DNA of 64,000 nucleotides, taken from assembly GCA_902604835.1 (NCBI GenBank), contig CACKZW010000003.1, positions 408 to 64,407 on the forward strand, written 5' to 3'. This DNA is from an uncultured Candidatus Actinomarina sp. (GTDB lineage: Bacteria; Actinomycetota; Acidimicrobiia; Actinomarinales; Actinomarinaceae). Of the stretch, positions 34,381-44,906 are shown piece by piece; position 1 is the stretch's first letter, and every line of letters begins with the position of its first letter. Below the pieces are notes generated by a model. That model was not told the origin of the DNA. It worked only from the letters and a program-made list of their open reading frames with translations, and searched no databases. A program made the position numbers and the translations under genes.

Positions 34381-34896
34381 TTAGAGATCATGTATCACAC
34401 TAGTGACCACACCCCATATCTGGGCTTCACTTTTTCCATTTAACTCAATTGGTTCGTAGTCTTCATTTTCTGGCTGCAAAATGATGGATGACCTTTTTTT
34501 TAGGTACCTTTTTACGGTAAGTTCGCCATCAATTATTGCAATTACTACATTTCCATTTTCTGCTTTGATACTTTTATCAACTACCAAAATATCATTTGGG
34601 AATATTCCTGCATTTATCATTGAATTTCCGGAGGCACGAACCAAAAAGGTTGATGCGGGATGCTTTACTAGGTATTGATTAAGATCAATCTTATCTTCTA
34701 AATAATCGTCAGCAGGGGATGGAAAACCTGCTGCAACCCTCTCTGTATACAATGGGATCTCATAAAGACCTTTACTTACTATCTCTGAAATGTATTTAAC
34801 TTTGCTTTCAGGGACTCTTATAGCTTTGGTTGACTCCCCATATTTTCCCTGTCCTTTTGGTCTACCAGCACCTTTTCTTGCTCCGCCTTTTGTCAT
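34381..34896 (-). CDS. umuD: UmuD-like S24 autopeptidase (translesion polymerase accessory subunit) with basic N-terminal extension
   Basis: AAGFPSPADDY cleavage-site region, ASGNSM Ser nucleophile, VVDKS Lys, and a close match by eye to E. coli UmuD. The N-terminus GGARKGAGRPKGQGKYGE is AT-hook-like. Confidence 0.85.
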   Translation of the reverse strand: MTKGGARKGAGRPKGQGKYGESTKAIRVPESKVKYISEIVSKGLYEIPLYTERVAAGFPSPADDYLEDKIDLNQYLVKHPASTFLVRASGNSMINAGIFPNDILVVDKSIKAENGNVVIAIIDGELTVKRYLKKRSSIILQPENEDYEPIELNGKSEAQIWGVVTSVIHDL

Positions 34897-34955: not shown

Positions 34956-36221
34956 ATGAACAATAAAATTTTTGCTTTGGTCGACTGTAATAACTTTTAT
35001 GCATCGTGTGAACGAGTATTTAATCCAAAACTTGAAGGAGAGCCAATCGTTGTTCTTTCCAATAATGATGGGTGCATTGTTGCACGATCAAATGAAGCAA
35101 AAGCACTAGGTATTCCAATGGGAGCTCCGCTATTCAAATATGAACAATTAATAAAGAGAAACAATGTTCATGTATTCTCATCAAACTACACATTCTACGG
35201 AGATATGTCAGCAAGAGTGATGACATCTCTTCGTTCAATAGTTGGGGATATCGAGATTTACTCAATAGATGAAGCTTTTTTAGATATAAGTAAATTTTAT
35301 TATTGTGATTTAAAAGAGACAGCAGATGAGATACGAAGACAAATAAAACAATGGACAGGAATACCAATCTCAATAGGTATTGGGCCATCCAAAACATTAG
35401 CAAAAGCTGCAAATAGACAAGCTAAAAAATATGAAGAATCAAATGTCTTTGATATACGAGAGGAGTCAGAAAGAATCAGAGTCCTAAAAAGTTTAGAACT
35501 TGAAGACATATGGGGGATATCAACAAGATGGGGCAGGAGGCTTAGAACTATCGGGATCAACTCCGCATACGAGCTTTCAACAGGAGATCCAAGACAGATA
35601 CGAAAAACACTCAGTATTGTGGGAGAGAGGATATATCACGAGCTTAATGGCATATCGTGCATGCAAATTGAAGAAGTTAAAAATAAAAAAAATATAATTT
35701 CATCAAAATCTTTTGGAAAAAAAGTTACAAAAGTATATGAACTTGAAGAAGCTGTTTCAACCTATGTTGCAAGAGCATGTGAAAAATTACGATCTCAGAG
35801 CTCAAGAGCTGGAGGAATCCATGTATTTTTGAGAACTAGCCCGTTTATAGATATTGATAAAAAATACAGTAATGGGATGAGTTCATTTTTTACAATTCCA
35901 ACAAGTAACACTTCAAAGATAATCAAAGAAGCAAAAAGATTAACGAATAAATTATTTCTCCCAAACTATGAGTATCAAAAAATAGGAGTTATTTTATTAA
36001 ATATTTCTGATGCCAGGAATGAACAATTCAGCTTTCACGAGAGTGAGAATTATGAACAGTCAGATATCCTCATGGAATCGTTAGATCATCTAAATGACAG
36101 GTTTGGAAATGGAACTATTTTTATGGGAGCACAGGGCATTCAAAAAAATTGGAAGATGAGAGCTGACAGAAAGTCAGCAGCATATACAACAAAATTATTA
36201 GATATTCCCGAAGTAAGTTAA
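34956..36221 (+). CDS. umuC: Y-family DNA polymerase (UmuC-like)
   Basis: The N-terminus [51 protein letters not shown] is a UmuC hallmark. SIDEAFLD catalytic motif. 421 aa. Confidence 0.88.
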
Positions 36222-39677: not shown

Positions 39678-40442
39678 TTAATTTATTTGCTCGATTATTT
39701 TCTTTGTTCTGTCAAAATCAACAGGATTTTCTACGTTGTTGTCTAACTTAAAACTTGTTCCAATAATCAATATATCTGCAATATCTTCATATTTATCTAT
39801 ATTTGTCTCATTTACGCCAGATCCAATAGCTAACTTACCTGATGGAACGATATCTCTTACTTTGTTCAAATCATCAATATTTATTTCATGACCTGTTCCA
39901 TCACCAGTAACTATTACAACATCTGCTCCTGCGCGGTTGATTAATTCCTCGGTATGGTTTTCTATTTTTGATCCTTCTGGCGGAACAGCATGCTTAACGA
40001 AAACATCGGCAAAAATTTCTATATCTTTATTTAAACTTTTATTGAATTCAGCAATTTTATTTGCTTCACCCTCAATTATTCCCTGATCTGTAAACATCAT
40101 TACATTATTTAAGACATTTATTCTTACAAAATCTGCATTTGTTGCTTCAGCAATGGACAATGCAGCAATTCCATCATTTCTTAAAACATTTACACCTAGT
40201 TTTAATTTTGAATCAATATTTAGATTCTGTATTACTGAAGTAAAACTTGCTACAGTTCGCTTTGATACATCATTTTTGACGAACGGTACATCGCCAAAAT
40301 TTTCAACAATAATTCCATTTACGCCAGCTTTTGAAAGGTTGTCAATGTCATTTTGTGCTAGTTCTGTAATTTCTTCAAGATTTAATTTATTAGACGGTGA
40401 GCCAGGTAAACCTTTAAGGTGTATAACACCAAGAATTATCAT
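39678..40442 (-). CDS. BtpA/SgcQ family TIM-barrel protein
   Basis: The N-terminal IILGVIHLKGLPGSP motif is typical of the BtpA family. 254 aa. Confidence 0.7.
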   Translation of the reverse strand: MIILGVIHLKGLPGSPSNKLNLEEITELAQNDIDNLSKAGVNGIIVENFGDVPFVKNDVSKRTVASFTSVIQNLNIDSKLKLGVNVLRNDGIAALSIAEATNADFVRINVLNNVMMFTDQGIIEGEANKIAEFNKSLNKDIEIFADVFVKHAVPPEGSKIENHTEELINRAGADVVIVTGDGTGHEINIDDLNKVRDIVPSGKLAIGSGVNETNIDKYEDIADILIIGTSFKLDNNVENPVDFDRTKKIIEQIN

Positions 40443-40445
40443 ATG

Positions 40446-41183
40446 CTATATTTTGGCGTGCTGAAGTTTAATAAATTTTTTAGCATAGTCACCCTCGGTA
40501 GTTAGCGTAGGCTTAAATCCCTTACCCGTTCTCCCGGTTACGATTCTACACCAATCGCTTGCATTTCCTTTTATGCTATTTTCAGATTTTTCATTTCCAA
40601 ATTGCCAGGCTCTATATTCTGGACCTATTAATTCAATTCTTAAATCCTTATGTTTAAGTTTATTTTGTTTACTTGTAAACTCAGCATTTAGCCATCCAAA
40701 TAAAGCTACGTGCTTAATTCTCACAGTGTCTTCGTAGTCCTTTTTCATACTGTCATAAATATCTAATCCATGAGCCCATGTTTCAGCAAGCTTTGAAGAT
40801 GCAAATGTTTGATAGTCCATTTCTTTATTCCACCATTTAATTTTTTTACCAGCTGAACCTTTTGCTAAATTTTCAACAACTTTTGCTCTCGATAATCTCC
40901 ACCATTCAATAACGTCTTGGGGACGCATGTCGTTACCCTTTTTAATGCATTCTTTTTCAAATTTTCCTAATCCGCTTGGACCTCTAAATCTATTAAAATC
41001 TGTACCTTTGCCCTTCATTGCATTAAATGCTAAATCTTCTAATCCCGCAAGGTAGCTTACATGGTTTGTTATATTCCAATTTTTAAATGTAGTTTTAGTG
41101 TTCCAGTTTCTTACGGGAATACTTTGGAGATACTGGTCTAGAAGTTGTTGCTCTGCAACTAAACTACTTAATAAATCTTTCAC
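40446..41183 (-). CDS. DinB/mycothiol-dependent maleylpyruvate isomerase N-terminal domain family protein (TIGR03084-like)
   Basis: The size and N-terminal pattern (LVAEQQLLDQYL..., NWNITNHVSYLAGLEDLAF) resemble the actinobacterial MDMPI_N family. This is a weak by-eye call. Confidence 0.5.
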   Translation of the reverse strand: MKDLLSSLVAEQQLLDQYLQSIPVRNWNTKTTFKNWNITNHVSYLAGLEDLAFNAMKGKGTDFNRFRGPSGLGKFEKECIKKGNDMRPQDVIEWWRLSRAKVVENLAKGSAGKKIKWWNKEMDYQTFASSKLAETWAHGLDIYDSMKKDYEDTVRIKHVALFGWLNAEFTSKQNKLKHKDLRIELIGPEYRAWQFGNEKSENSIKGNASDWCRIVTGRTGKGFKPTLTTEGDYAKKFIKLQHAKI

Positions 41184-41484: not shown

Positions 41485-41487
41485 TTT

Positions 41488-41943
41488 ATCTGGAAAATAT
41501 TAGGTAGAACATTTTCTTATTGGCCTACGTGGCTCGTCAGACTCATCACATTTTTACACACAAAACTGATAAAGTTTAACCAAACAAAAGTTGGCAAGAT
41601 ATTAATAGGGGACAATATATTACTTCTTGAAACTATTGGACGAAAATCAAACAAAATTAGAAAAACTCCTTTGACTTATGTTCAGATCGATGATGGGTAT
41701 TTAGTTGCTGCATCATATGGTGGTCGTGACAAAACTCCTGATTGGTTTTATAACATTGATAATCAAAATGTGAGAGTATTTGTTAATAAAGAATACCAAA
41801 ACGTAAAACCTTCCGTTGTTAAAACTGACGATAAAGAAAAATATTGGAGTTTGTTGACTGCTGTATATCCAACTTTTAATTTATATCGTTCAAAAACTGA
41901 TAGAGATATTCCTTTAGTGAAACTGATTACAGAACAGGTTTAA
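41488..41943 (+). CDS. DUF385 / deazaflavin (F420)-dependent nitroreductase family protein; no canonical start, ATC 41488 proposed
   Basis: The frame is open from 41485. The full-length domain pattern LLLETIGRKSNKIRKTPLTYVQIDDGYLVAASYGGRDKTPDWFYNI...YWSLLTAVYPTFNLYRSKTDRDIPLVKL is present. The first canonical start (TTG 41671) would delete the N-terminal half. GGAG lies 6 nt upstream of ATC 41488. Confidence 0.6.
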   Translation: MWKILGRTFSYWPTWLVRLITFLHTKLIKFNQTKVGKILIGDNILLLETIGRKSNKIRKTPLTYVQIDDGYLVAASYGGRDKTPDWFYNIDNQNVRVFVNKEYQNVKPSVVKTDDKEKYWSLLTAVYPTFNLYRSKTDRDIPLVKLITEQV

Positions 41944-42913
41944 GATTAGGGCCATTTCTCACAACTGTATTCCATAACGTAGAATAATGGTCTAAGTCCT
42001 CTGGGTTAACATGAGGAAGTACCATGTTGATCCAGGTCTCAAAAAGAGGATCAGATGAGTTTTTGTATAGATCTAAACCAACTGGAATCCTTTCAACTAC
42101 CGTTCTCAAACTCATAGGTGTTTCAATGTTTACGCTTATATCATCTGATAAAAATGAGTTATTGATTTCGATAGCTAATTTGATAATTAAATCCGTAAAT
42201 TCTTTTTGTAATTTTGGATATCGTTTTTTAAAAATTGATTCAAGTTGTTCTTTATTAGGAAATGGCTTATCCCAAATAACCCATCTATCAGCGAATGCTT
42301 TATTTAATGTTTGTGTACCTGCATAATCTCTGAGGCTAGTTGGGTTCATTGTTCCAAAAATATAGGAATCATTTCTTAATTCAATCACTTCACCGTTTGG
42401 TAACTCTAATTTTTTATGCCTATCAAGCAAAGAGTGCAAAGCAAAAAGTACTTCAGGTCCAGCAGCATTAAGTTCTGATAAATTAATAATAGATGGACCT
42501 CTCAAAGCTCTTGTTAATTCACCATCTTGCCATTTGCTATCAGTTCCACCCACACCATCACCATATAGCTGAACTGATCCAAGCAATGTAACATCTCTAA
42601 CTTCACCAGAAAGTGGAATTCGGTAGTATGGATATTTTAGCTTCGCAGCAAGTTGTTCAATATCATGATCTTTACCTGTGCCCATGTGTCCTTTTAGTGC
42701 AATATGAATTGGTATTTCATTGTCGAATGTCTTTTCTTTACTTTCAATGATTTGTGCTAATTTAAATTGAATTCCAAAATCTACATAATTTTTGTCAACA
42801 TCTGGAATCCTCTCCGACCTTGAGTCGTAATCGTTTATTGATTTTGTTAATTTACACTCTTTAAGAGTTACATCTCCCTTTCCATTGGGATTTTTAAAAT
42901 TTTGATCTGCCAT
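41927..42913 (-). CDS. AAA+ ATPase, CobS/MoxR-like (AAA_5) with atypical Walker motifs
   Basis: GHMGTGKDHDIEQLAAKL (Walker A region, 42668-42691), IINLSE (Walker B position, 42473-42490), and FGTMNP sensor-1. By eye it is collinear with CobS. The ATG overlaps the upstream gene's TAA. Confidence 0.8.
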   Translation of the reverse strand: MADQNFKNPNGKGDVTLKECKLTKSINDYDSRSERIPDVDKNYVDFGIQFKLAQIIESKEKTFDNEIPIHIALKGHMGTGKDHDIEQLAAKLKYPYYRIPLSGEVRDVTLLGSVQLYGDGVGGTDSKWQDGELTRALRGPSIINLSELNAAGPEVLFALHSLLDRHKKLELPNGEVIELRNDSYIFGTMNPTSLRDYAGTQTLNKAFADRWVIWDKPFPNKEQLESIFKKRYPKLQKEFTDLIIKLAIEINNSFLSDDISVNIETPMSLRTVVERIPVGLDLYKNSSDPLFETWINMVLPHVNPEDLDHYSTLWNTVVRNGPNLKPVL

Positions 42914-44865
42914 TATGCTACTCCTGTAGATTCCTCAATATTCTTTATAAGTATATCCTTTGTGATGTTTACTATTGAATGTATTAGTTCTTCAGGTTCA
43001 TTTATCTGTGTTTTGTTTATATATTCTTTCCATGTTCCTCTTTCACCTATTCCGATACCAATGACATCAATACCAACTTTTGTTGCATAGTTGATTGAAC
43101 TTTTCAAATCGTTTAATGAGCCACGTGTCATACCATCTGAAAGTACTGCTAACAATTTTGTTTTTGATCCTTTTTCCAATAATCGTTTAGTTGAAAACAT
43201 AATATTTCTTTCGTCAACATTCGTTCCTCTCTCAAACATACTTGCGGGAGGATGGTCATCTTTGATATCTAATTTATCCAAAGATTCTCTTAAATTCCTT
43301 GAAAACTCAATTAGTCCAATAAATTTTTCGTAATTTGCTTTCCAAGAATCATCAAACCTTTTGATAAAGTAATGGTTTGTAGTATTGAAATAGTATTCAG
43401 CATTTGAACCGTAATTTGTATTTAACATCGACGATACTGCCATCTTTCTTTTTATATAAAGCTCTTCGTTTTCTAATTCATCAGCAGCAAAACTTCTATT
43501 AAAGATTGCAACTTCAAAATCTATATCTAATTCATGACATATTTGAGCTAAATAACTTGCTCCAATTAGTGCAGCTGATAATGACCATGGATAAAACTCT
43601 CCTTTATCTTTTTCAAGCATTGAGCCACTTCCATCAATTAATAATGAAACAGCATAAGACTTATTTGATAGTCTTTGTTTTTGCTCAAACATTCTTTCGT
43701 ATCTTCCAGAACCAAGCATAAGTGGAACATGTGGTGATAAATCTCCCTGATCGTAACCACTTATACGTAGCCTTTTTTTGTTATGAATAAAGTAAGGCTT
43801 TATTTTATTAGTAACTTTAAATACAGGAAGGTCCCATTCCTCTAAAAGTGAATTGTAAGTTGCCAGACCATTTTTATAAAGGCTATTAAATGTTCTTGGT
43901 AGATTAGTACTTACAAGCTTTGAAACTTTTCCATTTGGAAGGTAAACAGTTGTCGATGTACCAATTTTAGAAACATGATCATCCATAAAATTTAGCTTTT
44001 CATCATCTGATTCTTTACCTTTTTTTCCAAGAAACTTTTCGAGTGTATTGCCTGTAGTTATATTCGTACTTGATGGGATTAAAACTTTATTTAGATCGTC
44101 TATGACTGAATCTTCAAATTTTTCTATAGATTCTCTTCTTTCACCTAAAGTTTGACTATCAACATCAGGCAAAAGATTGTACCTTCTGCAAATATCAGCA
44201 ATTTGGATCGTAATTTCAATGGTGTCTTCTACAAGGTCTCTGTCGTAAGAAAAATTATTTAAAATAGCCAAAGTTTCTCTCACTGATTCTTTTATATTTT
44301 TTGGATAAGATTGAAGGTCGATTTCAATATAACCAGCAATACTATGAAACATTAAAATTAAAAATTTATTGAAAGGTTTTAGATTTTTAATATTGATACT
44401 GGATTCTTCATAAATATCCTGAAGGATTGACCTTAGGCCTTTGAAATCTTTTACAAATTTATATTCTTCAAAAGAATGAACTAATATTTCAAAGATATAT
44501 TTCCCAAATGGTCCGGAAAGCACCTCAAGCACTTCATCAATATCATTTAATCCATCAGTCTCATCTTGAAATTTTGATAAGTCTTTATCTATATCAAATT
44601 TATAATCTTCCATGGAGTGTATGGCTTCATGGATAACTGTTCCTATGACGACTTCTTTAAATTCTAAGTCAGAATCTGAAACAGAGTTAACTAATATGGA
44701 TGGATTTATATTTATTTCATTTTTATTTTTACTTATTGTTTTACCTAGATTTAATACTATTTTGTCATTATTCATCGTGCTTTGAATAAGCCGAGTTATA
44801 GCCGGGCTAATCTTCTGAAAAATTTCTATTATCTGAGTTTCTAAAGTTTTTTTCTTAAATTCCAT
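42913..44865 (-). CDS. HExxH-motif / von Willebrand factor A domain protein (CobT-like or DUF2201-like architecture)
   Basis: HEAIH at 44617-44631, MIDAS motif LLIDGSGSM at 43618-43635 (DGSGSM), and later LLAVLSDG. 650 aa. Confidence 0.75.
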   Translation of the reverse strand: MEFKKKTLETQIIEIFQKISPAITRLIQSTMNNDKIVLNLGKTISKNKNEININPSILVNSVSDSDLEFKEVVIGTVIHEAIHSMEDYKFDIDKDLSKFQDETDGLNDIDEVLEVLSGPFGKYIFEILVHSFEEYKFVKDFKGLRSILQDIYEESSINIKNLKPFNKFLILMFHSIAGYIEIDLQSYPKNIKESVRETLAILNNFSYDRDLVEDTIEITIQIADICRRYNLLPDVDSQTLGERRESIEKFEDSVIDDLNKVLIPSSTNITTGNTLEKFLGKKGKESDDEKLNFMDDHVSKIGTSTTVYLPNGKVSKLVSTNLPRTFNSLYKNGLATYNSLLEEWDLPVFKVTNKIKPYFIHNKKRLRISGYDQGDLSPHVPLMLGSGRYERMFEQKQRLSNKSYAVSLLIDGSGSMLEKDKGEFYPWSLSAALIGASYLAQICHELDIDFEVAIFNRSFAADELENEELYIKRKMAVSSMLNTNYGSNAEYYFNTTNHYFIKRFDDSWKANYEKFIGLIEFSRNLRESLDKLDIKDDHPPASMFERGTNVDERNIMFSTKRLLEKGSKTKLLAVLSDGMTRGSLNDLKSSINYATKVGIDVIGIGIGERGTWKEYINKTQINEPEELIHSIVNITKDILIKNIEESTGVA

Positions 44866-44906
44866 TTTTTATCATTATCATTAAAGACTGACAATATAAG
44901 TATAAG

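Follow-up and report, generated by a model that had tools for sequence, protein, structure and literature searches.

A 64,000-nucleotide stretch of DNA from an uncultured Candidatus Actinomarina bacterium (contig CACKZW010000003.1, positions 408 to 64,407; here called the window) contains two coupled minus-strand genes whose products are relatives of the cobaltochelatase motor ATPase CobS and of its adaptor CobT. The source lineage, Candidatus Actinomarina (OCS155), belongs to the order Actinomarinales in the class Acidimicrobiia. The interpretation favored here, and held to be probable, is that the two genes encode a vertically inherited and highly divergent CobS/CobT motor-adaptor pair which forms a clade specific to Acidimicrobiia. 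Such a pair would act as a ring-and-shaft machine of the CobST type, possibly also as a processing peptidase, and its client would be something other than CobN. Pairs of an AAA+ ATPase and a metallopeptidase-vWA protein are already known from phages (Iyer et al., 2021; PMC7824862). In the literature, no description was found of a chromosomal, vertically inherited clade of the AAA+/metallopeptidase-vWA pair.

The adaptor gene (T; 42913-44865, minus strand, as are all parts of the pair given below) encodes a protein of 650 amino acids (aa) with an N-terminal zincin-like domain, a short linker, a putative "shaft" segment, and a C-terminal vWA domain that bears the MIDAS (metal-ion-dependent adhesion site). 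The ATPase gene (S; 41927-42913) encodes a CobS-like AAA+ protein of 328 aa. This is the architecture described in the first-pass annotation of the window, made from the letters of the sequence, and it was borne out. That annotation also reported that the two open reading frames (ORFs) have one nucleotide in common at 42913, and indeed the A at this position belongs both to the TAA stop of the 650-aa ORF and to the ATG start of the 328-aa ORF (GTA GCA TAATG GCA; surrounding sequence …GTAGCATAATGGCA…). Translational coupling had been proposed on this basis, and the junction (42911-42925) supports it: an AGGAG motif (42921-42925) stands 7 nt upstream of the ATPase-gene ATG, the stop/start overlap TAATG occupies 42911-42915, and the 1-nt overlap is identical in 42 of 49 orthologous loci.

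Both genes are strongly conserved. The 650-aa protein was found in 51 species-level Actinomarinales genomes with 60-100% identity and nearly always a length of ~650 aa, and the ATPase orthologues are 327-329 aa long and 77-100% identical across the order. The ATPase gene comes directly after the adaptor gene in each of the 49 Actinomarinales loci whose length allows both to be seen. In metatranscriptomes from seawater, contigs map to both genes, and individual ones run across the junction (contig X2 at 42059-43374 and contig X3 at 41950-43550). With lengths and identity conserved across 51 genomes and metatranscriptome contigs running over the junction, both ORFs are real genes and not chance frames. 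The contigs that cross the junction also fit one transcript for the pair, although DNA can contaminate such libraries.

Gene order was compared in ten genomes spanning the order and reads ABC permeases – ftsK – dapA – dapB – [T][S] – F420 reductase-like – small ORF – MDMPI/DinB – BtpA – … – MFS – UmuC-like – UmuD-like. At these ten loci the ATPase (77-100% identity) is better conserved than FtsK (72-97%), DapA (64-99%), or DapB (38-98%). The pair is therefore a core and strongly constrained locus, syntenic in all 49 loci of sufficient length, rather than a flexible island or phage cargo. The first-pass annotation had placed it in a "lineage-specific block" between pnp and dapB; instead, synteny of this block is complete within the order and partial within the class. 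A conflict or anti-phage system of the MoxR-vWA type, which had also been raised as a possible function, is very unlikely in this setting. The idea draws on the prediction that some MoxR-vWA modules are conflict systems (PMC7159879) and on the carriage of homologues by phages. Against it, neither protein matches a PADLOC model, and on this ground the defense reading was dropped. Furthermore, every genome examined has a single copy at a fixed, syntenic place among housekeeping genes, no effector or sensor partner accompanies it, the ATPase is better conserved than FtsK or DapA, and the GC content is flat (~0.29-0.35 over 30-52 kb of the window).

Relatives outside the order are few. An exhaustive search of 1.84 billion representative proteins gave only 186 matches at E ≤ 1e-3; word-indexed protein searches returned mostly close relatives (Actinomarinales, or relatives of the high-GC query P0121), and the distant ones came from the exhaustive search of representatives. 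All database names returned for the 650-aa protein and its high-GC relatives were "hypothetical protein". The nearest full-length relatives outside the order form a family of 737-743 aa from high-GC Acidimicrobiia, ~30% identical to the Actinomarinales protein. Four high-GC loci, two of them on contigs of 1.5 and 2.1 Mb, show the order dapB – M16 peptidase – (RF-1-domain protein) – [T][S] – YajQ – … – LOG – MDMPI – BtpA – Lhr. The frame running from dapB to MDMPI-BtpA is thus common to Actinomarinales and high-GC Acidimicrobiia, and vertical inheritance within the class is favored.

More distant relatives (550-900 aa) have long acidic linkers, and many are encoded on phage contigs beside a CobS-like ATPase. 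The two genes occur there in either order, T-S as well as S-T, so the vWA-first order of the window, initially described as reversed, has parallels in phages. These phage "cobS/cobT" pairs (PMC7824862; PMC8651126) resemble the Acidimicrobiia pair in several respects: an N-domain with HExxH…E is fused to a vWA domain of the CobT_C type, a CobS-like ATPase is the partner, and the phage flanks that were examined have no CobN next to the pair. They differ in the long acidic linkers of their adaptors, in the canonical Walker motifs of their ATPases, and in an identity of only 25-27% for the ATPase, while the adaptor is 27% identical over its C-terminal 39%. It might be asked whether the window pair is what is left of a prophage after domestication, or was acquired recently as an auxiliary gene of a phage: the first-pass annotation had pointed to cobS/cobT-like genes as common cargo of marine phages, HExxH-type CobT/CobS pairs are far commoner in tailed phages than in cells, and the T-then-S order is frequent among phages. 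Such an origin is hardly credible here: phage homologues are 25-27% identical at best, no phage genes lie near the pair, the locus is the same in Actinomarinales and in the sampled high-GC Acidimicrobiia lineages, and the clade-specific Walker change described below is found in no phage partner. A search of a phage database with the adaptor gave three weak rhizobiophage matches only, and a recent phage origin was dropped; an ancient one is conceivable. As a separate observation, five viral contigs (L063, L083, L089, L115, and L132) encode the CobT-like protein in two pieces, an N-terminal HExxH ORF and a vWA ORF of its own, an arrangement reported for the archaeal virus HHTV-2.

The ATPase is most closely related to CobS. 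It matches Pfam AAA_5 (E = 4.9e-16) and the phage "CobS" family phrog_249 (E = 1.2e-28), and its family profile aligns with CobS (PDB 9ujv_A) over chain residues 19-316 of 328 (E = 5.9e-75), with 255.7 bits compared to 141.6 for NorQ and 140.6 for CbbQ. Midasin ranks above CobS in this search only because its six AAA domains are summed. Judged by these alignments, CobS is the best single-domain solved relative of the ATPase, and Walker A, Walker B, sensor-1, Arg finger, and sensor-2 are collinear in the two proteins, in agreement with the likeness to CobS-type AAA_5 ATPases first seen by eye. K81, E147, the sensor-1 residue N190, the Arg finger R210, and the sensor-2 residue R270 are invariant. 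On the CobS equivalog model TIGR01650 (NCBIfam), the ATPase scores 66.9 bits against a cut-off of 558.55, which makes it a homologue and not an equivalog.

An unusual feature of the ATPase is a fixed exchange between its two Walker motifs. Walker A, GHMGTGKD (G75-D82; 42668-42691), corresponds to G71-S78 of canonical CobS and has Asp in place of the usual Ser/Thr. Walker B, S146-E147 within NLSE (42473-42478), corresponds to D141-E142 and has Ser in place of the usual Asp, while the catalytic Glu is kept. The combination of GKD and SE is found without exception in Actinomarinales and in the four high-GC Acidimicrobiia, whereas every phage partner and canonical CobS have GK[ST] and DE. In P-loop proteins the Walker A Ser/Thr and the Walker B Asp normally share in Mg2+ coordination. 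Since the exchange keeps one carboxylate and one hydroxyl, ATPase activity is probably retained.

The adaptor could be placed through its family. Taken alone, the 650-aa protein gives 21.1 bits to Pfam CobT_C, where the cut-off is 21, a weak VWA match, and no match in the Pfam scan to the CobT N-terminal family PF06213. A single-sequence PDB search returned nothing (best E-value 0.5), and CobT was reached by the family profile only. The profile of a 37-member family (alignment A1) aligns with canonical CobT (PDB 9uka_G, 637 aa) over chain residues 24-617 with an E-value of 3.9e-70. CobT_C (PF11775) is present in 37/37 family members (best E = 3e-43) and PF06213 in 17/37, which are of viral type (best E = 1.7e-14). 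On this sequence evidence the adaptor is assigned to the CobT superfamily. A resemblance to DUF2201-type proteins had been claimed as well, and these proteins, which occur with MoxR, do follow the same logic of a putative zincin, a vWA domain, and an AAA+ partner. The window protein, however, matches neither DUF2201 (PF09967) nor DUF2201_N (PF13203) even at E ≤ 10, and a weak DUF2201_N match (E = 4.4e-4) appears in 1/37 family members; the family is that of CobT.

Of particular interest is the N-terminal domain (aa 1-262; 44080-44865). Its AlphaFold2 (AF2) model has a mean predicted local distance difference test score (pLDDT) of 88.7 and a predicted TM-score (pTM) of 0.86, and consists of a helix, two strands, a short helix, the HExxH helix, and further helices, an order which fits the published description of the CobT N-domain (CobT_N). 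HEAIH (H79, E80, and H83 in residues 79-83) is a zincin-type metal and catalytic motif located, exactly as first annotated, at 44617-44631. The candidate third metal ligand is E134 (44464-44466), which would lie on the "Glu helix" of gluzincins and belongs to the family motif E[DE]xRxE. In the model, H79, E80, and H83 sit in helix 69-84 and E134 in helix 121-138, so that the domain shows the predicted gluzincin arrangement of HExxH on one helix and a Glu on a later one. Conservation of HExxH among orthologues had been set beforehand as a test that could refute the peptidase idea, and the motif withstood it. None of H79, E80, H83, and E134 varies among 52 Actinomarinales sequences, nor when high-GC Acidimicrobiia and then a phage member are added, and across the 37-member family their conservation is at least 90%. 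When the N-domains of Actinomarinales and high-GC Acidimicrobiia are aligned (~22% identical), 25 of 227 columns are invariant and these four residues are among them.

The proposed relation of this domain to CobT_N is transitive. An hhalign comparison links the Acidimicrobiia N-domain to the viral-type N-domain (probability 86%, E = 5e-6), with HExxH placed on HExxH and HSFEE on EDxRIE, and the viral-type members are those that match PF06213. Consistent with this, a structural search with the N-domain model found as its best matches the N-parts of viral CobT-like models, with moderate similarity (TMq up to 0.56). With regard to a zincin fold, Pfam gave weak matches only, with SprT-like in 2/37 family members besides the single DUF2201_N match. 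The crystal structure of canonical CobT_N was described as resembling an M48C peptidase domain in a 2026 cryo-electron microscopy preprint on CobSTN, which makes no mention of HExxH or zinc (bioRxiv 10.64898/2026.07.21.739949). In the profile alignment, canonical CobT (9uka_G) has GLGDS----MAL at the position of HExxH and keeps a downstream EQARVE. Among full-length viral CobT-like ORFs, 58/70 have HExxH together with a Glu further downstream, and the remaining 12/70 have a degenerate motif at the aligned spot (e.g., DQEVAK, DKEVSS, DGEIAK, DKEVST). These alignments point to repeated independent loss of the zinc site in phage CobT-like proteins, as in canonical CobT. Degenerate motifs were seen on viral contigs L121-L126, L131, L119, L067, and L106.

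Between the N-domain and the vWA domain, the adaptor has a linker of ~44 low-confidence residues (260-303) which is short and not acid-rich. Viral and canonical CobT members instead have long linkers rich in Asp and Glu, a feature that the window adaptor lacks. The segment of residues ~351-401 (43663-43815) is the best-conserved linear stretch of the adaptor within the order, where it is nearly invariant (KPYFIHN.KR.RISG.DQGDLSPHVP…RYERMFEQKQRLSNK), and its G374 is invariant in the whole 37-member family. In the isolated full-length model this segment has low pLDDT or is disordered. Canonical CobT has a comparable element, the shaft Q373-R413, which cannot be seen in the apo structure and enters the CobS pore with nucleotide (bioRxiv 10.64898/2026.07.21.739949). 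The conserved segment ends ~10 aa before the MIDAS Asp, just as the canonical shaft ends before D422. By analogy of position, residues ~351-401 are proposed to be the shaft, that is, the insert for the ring pore. The vWA domain itself (42916-43662) has a complete MIDAS formed by D411, S413, S415, N549, and D577. The DGSGSM motif (residues 411-416) lies precisely where it had been annotated (43618-43635), and the five MIDAS positions are invariant in A1 and equal D422, S424, S426, N518, and D546 of canonical CobT.

The Acidimicrobiia pair and canonical CobS/CobT (9ujv, 9uka) therefore have in common the collinear catalytic motifs of a 328-aa ATPase and an adaptor made of N-domain, linker, putative pre-vWA shaft, and vWA domain with five MIDAS positions. 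In contrast, the Acidimicrobiia adaptor has an intact HExxH where canonical CobT has none, the long acidic linker is missing, clade-specific inserts occur in the vWA domain, the ATPase has GKD/SE and scores far below the CobS equivalog cut-off, the genes stand in T-then-S order, and no CobN or corrin genes are in view.

A mechanism can be proposed by taking over what is known from the solved CobST and CobSTN structures. In the CobSTN complex, CobT_N docks on the CobS lid, the shaft Q373-R413 lies in the ring pore, and the MIDAS faces CobN (bioRxiv 10.64898/2026.07.21.739949). By extension, six copies of the 328-aa ATPase would assemble into an AAA+ ring, with the N-domain of the 650-aa adaptor seated on the lid of one ATPase protomer. 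ATP binding would then cause the putative shaft to thread into the ring pore, while the vWA/MIDAS face, pointing away from the ring, would grip an acidic residue of the client. An ATP-driven pull on the shaft could remodel the client between the N-domain and the vWA domain. Since the N-domain keeps the HExxH…E zinc site that canonical CobT has lost, the complex may also cleave its client under the control of the AAA+ ring; alternatively, the site may hold a metal. A stronger form of this proposal is that the pair is a working AAA+-gated zinc endopeptidase and chaperone, an undegraded ancestral form of the class-I chelatase motor whose CobT_N has kept its M48-like peptidase activity, which matures an essential housekeeping complex in bacteria that are among the most streamlined of all free-living ones and whose ATPase runs on a Walker A Asp and a Walker B Ser as Mg2+ ligands. 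As a whole, this stronger form is regarded as a tentative possibility and rather unlikely.

Several points weigh against the favored interpretation of a divergent, possibly peptidolytic CobST-type machine. Hydrolysis could be altered or lost through the Asp in Walker A and the Ser in Walker B. A Foldseek search of the PDB with the N-domain model gave no significant match (best E = 0.69) and no peptidase among the matches, and a profile of the N-domain alone found nothing in the PDB, the CobT_N crystal chain having an E-value of 1.2. For this reason the proposed zincin fold rests on motif, topology, and transitive homology. A CobT-type machine can work without HExxH, since canonical CobT and 12/70 phage homologues have lost the motif. 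The full-length adaptor model is of medium confidence (pLDDT 65.5), which together with the dominance of the vWA domain explains why Foldseek found generic vWA matches only, the best being NorD vWA domains in NorQD complexes. Finally, the view of CobN or ChlH covers the 64-kb window and the ±10-kb flanks of relatives.

Some of these points favor a different reading, in which the pair is purely a chaperone or a metal-insertion factor of the NorQD, CbbQO, or CobST type and HExxH has a structural or metal-binding role with no cleavage. All characterized relatives (CobST, NorQ/NorD, CbbQ/CbbO) are non-proteolytic remodelers. The MoxR-class systems NorQ/NorD and CbbQ/CbbO likewise combine an AAA_5 ring with a MIDAS-bearing vWA adaptor in order to remodel a metalloenzyme; they differ in the much lower profile scores of their ATPases, and no NOR (nitric oxide reductase) or Rubisco genes lie near the window pair. 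To our knowledge, the N-domains of NorD and CbbO have not been reported to carry HExxH. Speaking against a pure chaperone, no change at all is seen in H79, E80, H83, and E134 although the N-domain around them has diverged by ~78%, and one of the four, the general-base Glu, would be dispensable in a purely structural site. Moreover, the equivalent phage domain was read as an active metallopeptidase by Iyer et al. (PMC7824862), who proposed chaperone and peptidolytic roles in virion assembly for the AAA+/metallopeptidase-vWA pair of T4-like jumbo phages. A pure chaperone is possible, but we consider it improbable.

With respect to the client of the proposed machine, the cobalamin context is informative. 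The first-pass annotation had noted no cobN or corrin genes nearby, and this stands within the 64-kb window: it has no ORF of 1000 aa or more, hence no CobN-sized gene, and no cobalamin gene was found among the scanned neighbors of the pair. In the flanks of ten relatives, the gene order shows only orthologues of the window's own genes and no CobN is indicated. Two Actinomarinales genome papers and one supplement contain no statements on B12 or CobN. An indirect hint comes from the description of Actinomarinales genomes as ~1 Mb in size with extreme auxotrophy and a vitamin dependence said to resemble that of Pelagibacterales. In addition, according to the chelatase survey of Antonov, CobN is combined with chlI/chlD and not with cobS/cobT in Actinobacteria such as M. 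tuberculosis.

These observations bear on whether the pair might simply be an ordinary cobaltochelatase's small and medium subunits, with CobN encoded elsewhere in the genome. CobS and CobT are after all the closest characterized families, and viral CobST has been proposed to hijack the CobN of the host (Liu et al., 2021; PMC8651126). Nonetheless, an ordinary aerobic cobaltochelatase (CobNST, EC 6.6.1.2) is judged quite unlikely given the large shortfall on TIGR01650, the absence of a CobN-sized ORF from the window and of anything but window-gene orthologues from the flanks of the ten relatives, the reduced and auxotrophic genomes, the reported use of chlI/chlD in Actinobacteria of the kind of M. 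tuberculosis, and an adaptor which has lost the acidic linker and kept HExxH where the true chelatase has no such motif. Thus, considering the ~1-Mb auxotrophic genomes, the lack of a CobN-sized ORF in the window or in the order of the flanks, the chlI/chlD usage, and the departures from canonical CobST, the client of the divergent motor-adaptor pair is most likely not CobN or a corrin. It is probably a housekeeping protein complex important enough to be kept in a streamlined genome of ~1 Mb.

Neighboring genes were also considered as partners. In all four high-GC loci, a YajQ-family gene begins 9-38 nt after the ATPase gene (L052, 13245-13730; L053, 6618-7103; L134, 11327-11812; L135, 11242-11727), where it is probably a third member of the operon. 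YajQ was considered as a partner candidate from this proximity; no YajQ gene is found at the T/S locus in Actinomarinales. Genes for MDMPI_N/DinB-like and BtpA proteins lie within a few kb of the pair both in the window (39678-41183, minus strand) and in high-GC loci (L052, 16081-17697; L134, 14152-15712; L135, 14596-16147). Their proximity in Actinomarinales and high-GC Acidimicrobiia could be residual synteny or a functional link, and nothing beyond synteny ties BtpA or MDMPI/DinB to the pair.

On its upstream side the adaptor gene is divergent from dapB, and the two starts are 41 bp apart (44866-44906, AT-rich), a space that has to accommodate the promoters and ribosome-binding regions of both genes. 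At its 3' end, the ATPase gene shares 17 nt with a convergent gene whose product resembles F420H2-dependent quinone reductases. In the ORF list this gene (41485-41943, plus strand) begins at an internal TTG and spans 90 aa, and its frame is open from 41485. Its orthologues are 149-151 aa long and start with MW…, which in the window and in L001 reads ATC-TGG (IW), so the gene has either an ATC start or a lost start. Farther away, an S24 (UmuD/LexA-like) peptidase gene (34381-34896, minus strand) is divergent from an IMS/UmuC-like Y-family polymerase gene (34956-36221, plus strand), with 59 bp between them. Both are kept across the order (74-100% and 77-100% identity, respectively), which is notable for so reduced a genome.

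Few bacteria of the surface ocean are as abundant, or have genomes as reduced, as Actinomarina. The pair occupies 3 kb in every genome examined and its ATPase is more conserved than FtsK; for these reasons it likely does something important. It also bears on what the very common phage "cobS/cobT" genes do and on the evolution of chelatase motors. Canonical CobT_N has a peptidase-like fold without the motif, which is present in this clade and in most phage homologues; this suggests a peptidase-vWA co-chaperone as the ancestor of the chelatase adaptor. In the fixed exchange between Walker A and Walker B, nature has in effect run an experiment on how Mg2+ is coordinated at an AAA+ site. The main value of the finding thus lies in a conserved, uncharacterized pair in an abundant streamlined bacterium, in the hint that it gives on the origin of the chelatase adaptor, and in this unusual exchange.

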